Sequence record: PP925827.1
Source of the DNA: Escherichia phage Flotzy
DNA length: 42,657 nucleotides
Reading direction: 5' to 3' (one strand)
In this document: one piece after another, positions 37,767 to 38,621 of the stretch
Layout: every line of letters starts with the position of its first letter
Position numbering within the stretch: the stretch's first letter is position 1
Notes under the pieces: generated by a model
The model's input: the letters and a program-made list of their open reading frames with translations, nothing else
Database searches by the model: none
Told to the model about the DNA's origin: nothing
Translations under genes and position numbers: made by a program

Positions 37767-38621
37767 ATGAGCACTAAATTAACGGGTTACGTTTGGGATG
37801 CTTGTGCCGCTTCTGGCATGAAGCTATCCAGCGTTGCCATCATGGCGCGTCTGGCAGACTTCAGCAGTGATGAAGGGGTTAGCTGGCCTTCCATCGCTAC
37901 CATCGCGCGCCAGATTGGTGCTGGTGAGAGCACGGTTCGCACAGCCATATCTCAGCTGGAAAAAGATGGTTGGTTAACCCGCCAGCAGCGCCGTAAAGGC
38001 AACCGAAATGCATCGAACGTTTACCAGCTCAATGTTGCGAAATTGCAGGCTGCTGCCTTTTCTCACCTGTCAGATTCTGACGCATCAAAATCTGATGCCT
38101 CAAAAACCGACGCGTCAAAATCTGAGGCATCAAAAAACGATGAGAAAGGCGGTTTTCACCCGTCAGAATCTGGGGGGGATCCGTCAGTAAATACAACTAC
38201 TGATCCATCAGTTAAAAAACCTTCTCGTCCGGTTGCGCCGCAACCAGACCCTGAAGTGACGATCACCGATAACGCCATCCTGGTTCTGAATCATCTGAAC
38301 CTGGTTAGCGGCTCACGATACCAAAAATCAAAAACTTCTCTGGAAAACATCCGTGCTCGTTTGCGTGAAGGTTACACCGTTGGCGACTTACAGCTGGTGA
38401 TTGACCTTAAGCATGAGCACTGGAACGGCAATGACGTGCAATACCAGTACATGCGCCCTGAAACGCTATTTGGCCCGAAAAAGTTTGAGGGTTATCTGCA
38501 AAGCGGGATCCGTTGGGACAAGAAGGGGCGTCCACCGCGTGAAAGCTGGGGTGAAAAGAAACACGATCCGATGAAGTTCGGTCCGGTTGATACCAAGATT
38601 CCAGAGGGGTTCAGAGGATGA
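37767..38621 (+). CDS. replication initiation protein (O-like; N-terminal winged HTH, conserved phage C-terminal domain)
   Basis: N-terminal HTH region (SIATIARQIGAGESTVRTAISQLEKDGWL); DASK-repeat linker coinciding with DNA iterons. Confidence 0.7.
   Translation: MSTKLTGYVWDACAASGMKLSSVAIMARLADFSSDEGVSWPSIATIARQIGAGESTVRTAISQLEKDGWLTRQQRRKGNRNASNVYQLNVAKLQAAAFSHLSDSDASKSDASKTDASKSEASKNDEKGGFHPSESGGDPSVNTTTDPSVKKPSRPVAPQPDPEVTITDNAILVLNHLNLVSGSRYQKSKTSLENIRARLREGYTVGDLQLVIDLKHEHWNGNDVQYQYMRPETLFGPKKFEGYLQSGIRWDKKGRPPRESWGEKKHDPMKFGPVDTKIPEGFRG
38076..38138. repeat. tandem direct repeats (candidate origin iterons) inside the O-like gene
   Basis: Four imperfect repeats tctgaYgcNtcaaaa spaced 15-18 bp. 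Confidence 0.6.

Follow-up and report, generated by a model that had tools for sequence, protein, structure and literature searches.

Organization of the replication region

The genome of Escherichia phage Flotzy (sequence record PP925827.1), whose full length of 42,657 nucleotides is the window referred to throughout, is a complete lambdoid-type temperate phage genome as judged by its open reading frames (ORFs), Pfam and PHROGs. Here we analyze a tandem repeat array and its flanking elements, which lie in the middle of the replication initiator gene and are likely to form the replication origin of the phage. The features concerned are listed below, with their positions in the window.

37767-38621, + strand: replication initiator gene, 284 amino acids (aa), with the cis element in its middle (ORF, Pfam, PHROGs)
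37767-38051, + strand: N-terminal winged-helix domain, aa 1-95, presumed iteron-binding module (HTH_36, GntR, PaaX, MarR and DnaD_N matches)
38069-38081: left boundary site, a perfect 13-bp palindrome GTCAGA-T-TCTGAC with core TCAGATTCTGA (read from the sequence)
38076-38135, + strand: array of 15-bp repeats, candidate iterons, four copies (TRF; frozen synonymous sites in relatives)
38085-96, 38100-11, 38115-26 and 38130-41: 12-bp cores in the array, TCAAAATCTGAT, TCAAAAACCGAC, TCAAAATCTGAG and TCAAAAAACGAT, respectively
38150-38176: conserved block GGTTTTCACCCGTCAGAATCTGGGGGG, including the right boundary site TCAGAATCTGG at 38163-38173 (consensus across 79 loci)
38178-38216, + strand: two GATC-headed 15-mers 24 bp apart, GATCCGTCAGTAAAT at 38178-92 and GATCCATCAGTTAAA at 38202-16, candidate unwinding-element repeats and Dam sites
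38180-38229: AT-rich patch with a GC content of 0.33-0.35, the lowest in the gene (composition profile)
38231-38245: 15-bp palindrome GGTTGCG-C-CGCAACC, where the C-terminal module begins, right of the AT-rich patch
38244-38531, + strand: C-terminal helical domain Phg_2220_C, aa 160-255, presumed host-replisome recruitment module
38598-38618, + strand: conserved C-terminal tail IPEGFRG, kept in both C-terminal domain types (see below) whatever gene is downstream
38618-39952, + strand: Dam-family methyltransferase fusion with an insertion of ~150 aa, the next gene after the initiator and not a helicase loader

Two Pfam domains are found in the initiator, HTH_36 at aa 23-70 (E = 1.5e-9) and Phg_2220_C at aa 173-245 (E = 7.8e-23), both past the Pfam cut-offs, and the protein fits the class of phage initiators that combine HTH_36 with Phg_2220_C (PF09524, DnaD-like or 'conserved phage C-terminal domain'). 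In PHROGs it is labeled as replication initiation protein, primosomal protein or O-like, with a full-length match to phrog_428 'replication initiation protein' at 1.6e-68. The AlphaFold model is confident for the C-terminal aa 160-255 (pLDDT ~90), while aa 96-153 (nucleotides 38052-38225), the linker between the N- and C-terminal domains, are disordered with pLDDT < 40. A first-pass annotation made from the sequence alone had called the protein O-like, and this holds for the architecture but not for the family: Phage_rep_O (PF04492), which lambda O itself matches at 5.7e-36, is not matched by the initiator at E <= 0.01, and BLASTP against lambda O is non-significant (E = 0.6). Searches of PDB sequences, with the protein and with a profile of the C-terminal domain, return only generic winged-helix matches or noise, and the profile-profile comparison of Phg_2220_C (A4) with the lambda-O-type C-terminal domains (A7) gives no signal, both profiles being shallow. 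A published HHpred assignment places PF09524 with lambda O (PMC5509034).

A 15-bp repeat array in the initiator gene

The array is the top-scoring tandem repeat of the 42.6-kb window, reported by TRF with period 15, 4.0 copies and a score of 78, and with period 30 at a score of 96; a repeat search likewise gives four copies at an exact spacing of 15 nucleotides. The period-30 reading is unsupported, the units being all alike in relatives. The first-pass annotation had described four iteron-like repeats of 15-18 bp within the linker-coding part of the initiator gene, of which the number of copies, the motif, the coordinates and the position in the gene all stand, and only the period has to be corrected to exactly 15 bp. 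The array is in frame in the ORF and encodes SDASK SDASK TDASK SEASK, within the linker at aa 96-153. The units begin with TCTGACGCATCAAAA and TCTGATGCCTCAAAAA; three of the four fit tctgaYgcNtcaaaa exactly, and the third begins with ACC. Allowing up to two mismatches, the 12-mer core TCAAAATCTGAY has 10 sites in the window, five of them within 38069-38126, and the core of the arrays can also be given as TCAAAATCTGAC. The segment 38082-38098 reads GCATCA-AAATC-TGATGC. The last repeat unit also contains an in-frame A_AAA_AAC slippery heptamer of the classical -1 type at 38132-38138, which relatives do not conserve and which is thus probably incidental.

Conservation at the DNA level

We then compared the array among relatives having the same N-terminal domain. 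They came from 76 genomic loci at the species level and from phage and E. coli records, which gave 80 genes with 70 distinct arrays and 327 units. On the whole, the consensus of the unit is TCT GAC nCn TCA AAA, and its codons behave very differently:

Unit codon 1: NNT kept while the amino acid varies (S/F/P/I/Y/C)
Unit codon 3: amino acid (A/P/T/G/V/R) and bases both variable
Unit codon 4 (Ser): TCA 286, TCG 35; TCT, TCC and AGY never
Unit codon 5 (Lys): AAA 231, AAG 0

Counted over the 80 related genes, the Lys codons of the arrays amount to AAA 271 and AAG 1. Outside the arrays of these genes, 36% of the Ser codons are AGY and 31% of the Lys codons are AAG (Fisher p = 3e-105 and 5e-38, respectively). 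This shows that the conserved object is DNA, because the codons for Ser and Lys stay frozen and the middle codon is free to change its amino acid; it is the word TCA-R-A-W-TCTGA-Y of 11-12 bp followed by three free bases, and the word has imperfect dyad symmetry (TCAGA-W-TCTGA) around a central A-tract. The conservation is not explained by protein structure, since the region encodes a disordered linker.

The purifying selection on the DNA is also seen after the array, where about 20 codons (F-[D/H]-P-[S/P]-E-S-G-G-D-P-S-V...) are almost without synonymous variation. Over the 48 nucleotides following the array the pairwise identity at third codon positions is 0.81, versus 0.46 in the N-terminal domain, a value near saturation, and the commonest codon has a frequency of 0.89, versus 0.54 for the N-terminal domain (the commonest codon accounting for only 54% even in columns of conserved amino acid) and 0.63 for the C-terminal domain. 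Where an amino acid does change after the array, the first base of the codon varies and the third is fixed (TCA/CCA/GCA; GAC/CAC).

These data bear directly on the possibility, already raised in the first-pass annotation, that the repeats are merely protein-coding. In its full form this explanation takes the array as a slippage-prone coding linker of low complexity, (S-D-A-S-K)n, which has no cis function, and places the origin elsewhere. Slippage is certainly active, as the protein lengths of close homologues step by 5 aa (274/279/284/289/294); the copy number, which ranges from 3 to 9 among the 80 genes, changes by whole 15-bp units (2-9) just as slippage predicts, and the repeat peptide is disordered with the repeats in frame. 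However, slippage homogenizes one array at a time and cannot hold the rare Ser codon TCA, a Lys codon that is only AAA, and NNT at codon 1 across some 40-60 diverged lineages in which the amino acids themselves differ. Moreover, synonymous sites are just as frozen in the 60 bp of non-repetitive sequence that come next, and TRF finds no other repeat cluster or candidate origin elsewhere in the window. With synonymous sites frozen and amino acids varying freely in about 80 genes, we regard an array without cis function as highly improbable.

Elements flanking the array

On each side of the array stands one boundary site, a more symmetric copy of the array word. The left one, in its TCAGAWTCTGAC form, is the first site in nearly all loci, and together with 38161-38172 it makes up a 12-bp outer inverted repeat; the nested inverted repeats give a single-strand DNA fold with z = -4.5, which was not equaled by any of 200 shuffles. 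To the right of the array, the conserved block has the nucleotide consensus ggTTTTnACCCgnCAGAATCTGG in 79 loci, with the codons TTT (77/77), GAA (69/69) and TCT (74/76) fixed. The same is true of the codons in the region of the GATC 15-mers, namely GAT (78/78), CCG (74/78), TCA (68/68) and GTA (77/77), with the second GAT present in 68 of 79. The two 15-mers fall inside the AT-rich patch, and the AT fraction at this position is 0.63-0.67 throughout the family. The palindrome that follows has the general form GGTTGC-NNN-GCAACC; in about 33 of 79 loci (compared with shuffles) the arms stay the same and the loop varies. It is also present in Pantoea phage AH07 (L010), which has a different N-terminus, and goes with the Phg_2220_C module rather than the N-terminal module. 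A likeness of 38161-38182 to the palindrome right of the lambda AT-rich tract was considered and rejected, the local alignment score being equal to the shuffle mean.

Exchange of modules among relatives

Over the N-terminal domain and the linker (aa 1-165), the protein has 74-80% identity with the initiators of SfII, SfIV, vB_EcoM-720R4 and Klebsiella P7641, which carry a different C-terminal domain, homologous to that of lambda O (SfII versus lambda O, E = 7e-26). The same repeat core is kept with the same N-terminus, whichever type of C-terminal domain is attached. The helix STVRTAI and the wing GNRNASNVYQLNV of the N-terminal domain are nearly invariant in 80 loci, and in the most divergent N-terminus (L081), where STVRT is changed to STVIT and GNRNAS to GARNAT, the core is consistently altered to TCAGAWTCYGAA. 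Phg_2220_C initiators with other N-termini have other tandem repeats at the same position of the linker, and so does the O protein of Stx phage Min27, which has only the HTH_36 fold in common:

Pantoea AH07: linker repeat of 23 bp
Providencia PSTCR8lys: linker repeat of 23 bp, 4.1 copies
Aeromonas 56: linker repeat of 22 bp, 3.4 copies
Stx-phage Min27 O: linker repeat of 22-24 bp, 2.9 copies

What marks repeats as iterons is that they travel and change with the DNA-binding domain of the initiator and that an AT-rich tract comes next. In AH07 (L010, 2300-3193) and PSTCR8lys (L012, 2303-3364) we also observed a second tandem repeat of 12 bp, TACAGAGAGTAC, which encodes TENTTEITTE and stands directly after the 23-bp repeats, giving a two-tier repeat architecture of the linker.

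The exchange of modules is also what could speak for a real cis-acting DNA or RNA site that is not an origin, such as an operator array by which the initiator regulates itself, a locus for partition or incompatibility, a roadblock or attenuator acting in the pR operon, or a conserved linker that favors the shuffling of modules by recombination. The element sits exactly where the N- and C-terminal modules exchange, the GGTTGC-N3-GCAACC palindrome goes with the C-terminal module, and iteron arrays of plasmids act in copy control as well. Nevertheless, first bases that vary over fixed third bases argue for sequence-specific recognition over recent recombination, and no Rfam family, promoter-like site or convincing terminator is found in the linker. 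An origin is classically recognized by the two features seen here, co-variation of the repeats with the DNA-binding domain of their own initiator and an AT-rich tract beside them, and regulatory roles would be added to that of an origin rather than exclude it. A site of this kind instead of an origin is therefore quite unlikely in our judgement.

The putative origin and its working

Based on the above, the segment at about 38066-38245 is probably the phage replication origin; its layout resembles that of ori-lambda, and it lies where the initiator gene encodes the linker. The first-pass annotation had suggested an origin at the repeats, and as far as computation allows this is borne out by the frozen synonymous sites, the modularity, the AT-rich patch and the disordered linker. 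Our literature search found no published origin mapping for this initiator family. In the mechanism that we propose, the N-terminal winged helix would bind the array of 11-12-bp cores TCA-R-A-W-TCTGA-Y, at sites that recur every 15 bp and are flanked by the two more symmetric copies (38069-81 and 38163-73). The resulting nucleoprotein complex would then destabilize the neighboring AT-rich segment with its two GATC-headed 15-mers (38178-38229), and the Phg_2220_C domain, possibly together with the IPEGFRG tail, would bring in the host replicative helicase, most likely as the DnaB-DnaC complex.

Several observations weigh against an origin at this place. Two of the four units in the window depart from the core (ACCGAC and AACGAT). 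Lambda and the relatives examined have a spacing of 20-24 bp, whereas here it is 15 bp, or about 1.4 helical turns, which raises the question of how neighboring sites could all be filled. The AT bias of the AT-rich patch is only modest, about 66% AT over about 45 bp, and weaker than that of lambda. In addition, no DnaA boxes are found near the gene, the single TTWTNCACA match in the window (at 35268) being fewer than expected by chance, and the GC skew tracks the direction of transcription and is uninformative on an origin.

A more specific mechanism, which a large group of temperate phages of enterobacteria would share, can also be imagined for this origin, in which a solo initiator polymerizes on the unusually short, 15-bp-phased iterons in its own disordered linker, opens the GATC 15-mers, whose methylation is set by the phage Dam, and loads DnaB directly through Phg_2220_C and the IPxGFRG tail with no phage loader. 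We consider this combination unlikely. If true, it would represent a distinct logic of origin firing, in which a plasmid-like initiator, Dam control as in oriC and a gene-embedded origin as in lambda are brought together.

Whatever the details, the analysis provides a base-resolution and testable prediction of an origin for a widespread and unstudied prophage replication module, and in general suggests that gene-embedded origins can be recognized where a disordered linker has frozen synonymous sites. When prophages reside together in a host, the array could determine incompatibility between them, as well as interference that does not depend on immunity; it could also be used as a minimal replicon in vectors.

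Proposed recruitment of the host helicase

The first-pass annotation had also stated that no P- or DnaC-like gene follows the initiator and that the next gene is a Dam-like fusion. Both statements agree with our results, the Dam domain of the gene at 38618-39952 being recognized by Pfam, and the absence of a loader extends to the whole window (Pfam, PHROGs, tblastn and a Walker-A scan). Neither early operon contains a helicase, a primase, lambda P or a DnaC-like protein according to Pfam and PHROGs; tblastn detects no P or DnaC, and among ORFs of at least 80 aa a Walker-A motif is found in only one, a 700-aa ORF of terminase size. The downstream gene, for which a search for a helicase-loader fold had been proposed, shows no loader-like fold in the AlphaFold2 (AF2) model of the Dam protein.

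Among relatives, 73 of 76 loci are without a loader gene, and the downstream genes in the 76 loci are Dam or other methyltransferases, YfdN/PerC-like genes, RusA, antirepressors and DUF968. A lambda-P gene (PF06992) is present only in Lonsdalea (L060, 4325-5062), directly downstream of the initiator, and a DnaC/IstB-like gene directly after the initiator only in Serratia (L076, 4387-5136) and Rouxiella (L066, ~4388-5135). The complete initiators of L060 and L076 have a C-terminal domain of the Phg_2220_C type. Thus Phg_2220_C can adjoin conventional loaders, but this initiator family normally does without one. The question is thereby sharpened to how an O-like initiator obtains the host helicase without an encoded P or DnaC partner, and the three loci with a lambda-P or DnaC-like neighbor are natural comparators for the solo initiators. 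A 2006 review by Weigel and Seitz reportedly classifies loader-less modules.

One further feature that might take part in recruitment is the C-terminal tail. Its consensus IP[EAPQ]GFR[GS] is common to the two unrelated-looking types of C-terminal domain (initiators in L004-L086), and it is a peptide motif and not just an overlap with a ribosome-binding site, because it persists in L040 and L081, in which more than 130 bp lie before the start of the next gene. Speculatively, it may be a docking motif. In addition, we note that the tail is replaced in L060, where lambda P is next, and becomes ...DDDFI, similar to an SSB tail, in L076, where the DnaC-like gene is next.

In iteron plasmids, the initiator alone can use the host DnaB/DnaC (PMC4980987). 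With no phage helicase and no P/DnaC loader, and given this analogy, capture of host DnaB-DnaC is the most economical inference; direct recruitment of DnaB-DnaC by the initiator is a real possibility, though we would put it at somewhat less than an even chance. The main alternative is a PriA-dependent route, according to which the element is an origin, yet an R-loop or D-loop, arising from pR transcription or from opening induced by the initiator, is used by the host restart primosome PriA-PriB-DnaT-DnaC. This would agree with the lack of an encoded loader, with the place of the gene in the pR operon, lambda having the same arrangement and requiring transcriptional activation, and with the label 'primosomal protein' given by PHROGs to the N-terminal family; O-like proteins fused to a DnaT C-terminal motif do exist (DopC, PMC5509034). 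On the other hand, the sequence gives no evidence of a structure recognized by PriA, and the Phg_2220_C-type initiators paired with lambda P (L060) or a DnaC-like protein (L076) suggest a conventional hand-off from initiator to loader to DnaB. We accordingly give the restart primosome only a small likelihood, below that of direct DnaB-DnaC capture.

Comparison with known systems

The lambda record contains four dyad iterons of 18 bp, of the form ATCCCTCAAAACGAGGGA with a central A-tract, whose starts are 20, 24 and 23 bp apart; they lie in the middle of gene O, and an AT-rich tract comes after them (lambda record; PMC7466680). The element of Flotzy is similar to ori-lambda in that its repeats are in the linker-coding middle of the initiator gene, the sites are dyads with a central A-tract, an AT-rich tract follows, and the whole is placed in the pR operon after cII. 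As in lambda and the Stx phages, the N-terminal DNA-binding domain and the C-terminal recruitment domain are exchangeable, and the copy number varies among relatives (four in lambda, six in Stx phages). In lambda, 18-bp iterons are spaced by 20-24 bp, but here sites of 11-12 bp follow each other head-to-tail at intervals of 15 bp. Further differences are that the initiator is outside Phage_rep_O, with Phg_2220_C as its C-terminal domain and without a P gene, and that two conserved GATC 15-mers are in the AT-rich part. Two features by which lambda O/P is defined, a loader and iterons of the lambda size and spacing, are lacking in the module. It is a variant of the known lambda design in an uncharacterised but widespread family of enterobacterial prophages, and a clean example of loader-less lambdoid replication.

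The hosts of this family include Escherichia, Shigella (SfII/SfIV), Enterobacter, Klebsiella, Citrobacter, Yersinia, Providencia, Proteus, Pantoea and Erwinia, and among its members are SfII, a prophage of the probiotic strain Nissle 1917, Eeyore and LLS. With SfII, SfIV, vB_EcoM-720R4 and P7641, Flotzy shares the N-terminal domain, the repeat core, the downstream conserved block and the lack of a loader, whereas the SfII-type initiators have a C-terminal domain of the lambda-O type and often a YfdN/PerC-like gene before Dam.

Phg_2220_C is common to many replication proteins of Streptococcus, Lactobacillus and Staphylococcus phages (phrog_1701). Gram-positive phages with replisome organizers or DnaD-like initiators, for example SPP1 with G38P and oriL in gene 38, or the lactococcal phages TP901-1 and Tuc2009 with their rep genes, have the origin inside the initiator gene and usually a loader and/or helicase beside the initiator. 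They differ from Flotzy in hosts and N-terminal domains. Among plasmids, the origin of P1 has GATC-containing repeats. The iteron plasmids (pSC101, R6K, RK2, F and P1) resemble the Flotzy module in having a single winged-helix initiator and direct repeats beside an AT-rich element, and load the host DnaB with host factors (PMC4980987), but their iterons of 17-22 bp are at ~22-bp spacing and outside the rep gene, and DnaA boxes are usual.

Genes around the initiator

The replication region is 98.5% identical to that of Escherichia phage Eeyore, and phage LLS and prophages of several E. coli strains are also near relatives. Other genes recognizable in the window are listed below.

991-1695: Q
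29369-30562, - strand: integrase
35828-36523, - strand: cI
36621-36884: cro
36787-37425: cII/YmfL-like gene

The Dam gene overlaps the initiator gene by ATGA and is translationally coupled to it, while the putative origin contains two conserved GATC sites. The C-terminal 245 aa of the Dam gene consist of the insertion of about 150 aa, which few relatives have, and the usual 65-aa tail of the family. On the whole, three DNA methyltransferase genes are found in the genome, of the N6_N4 type at 2029-3057, of the Dam type at 38618-39952, and of the C5 type, with 663 aa, at 39891-41882. Upstream of the initiator, at 37377-37777, two ORFs overlap in different frames and public annotations disagree: the DUF4222 ORF at 37598-37777 (Pfam E = 3e-18) is the one annotated by PGAP, and the rival ORF at 37377/37431-37757 is annotated in Eeyore and LLS. 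Finally, a sub-threshold Rfam match to the small RNA RprA, over the full length of the model (43 bits versus a gathering threshold of 70; E = 0.004), is located at 35272-35408 on the - strand, in the non-coding gap of about 700 bp from a yfdP-like gene to cI.

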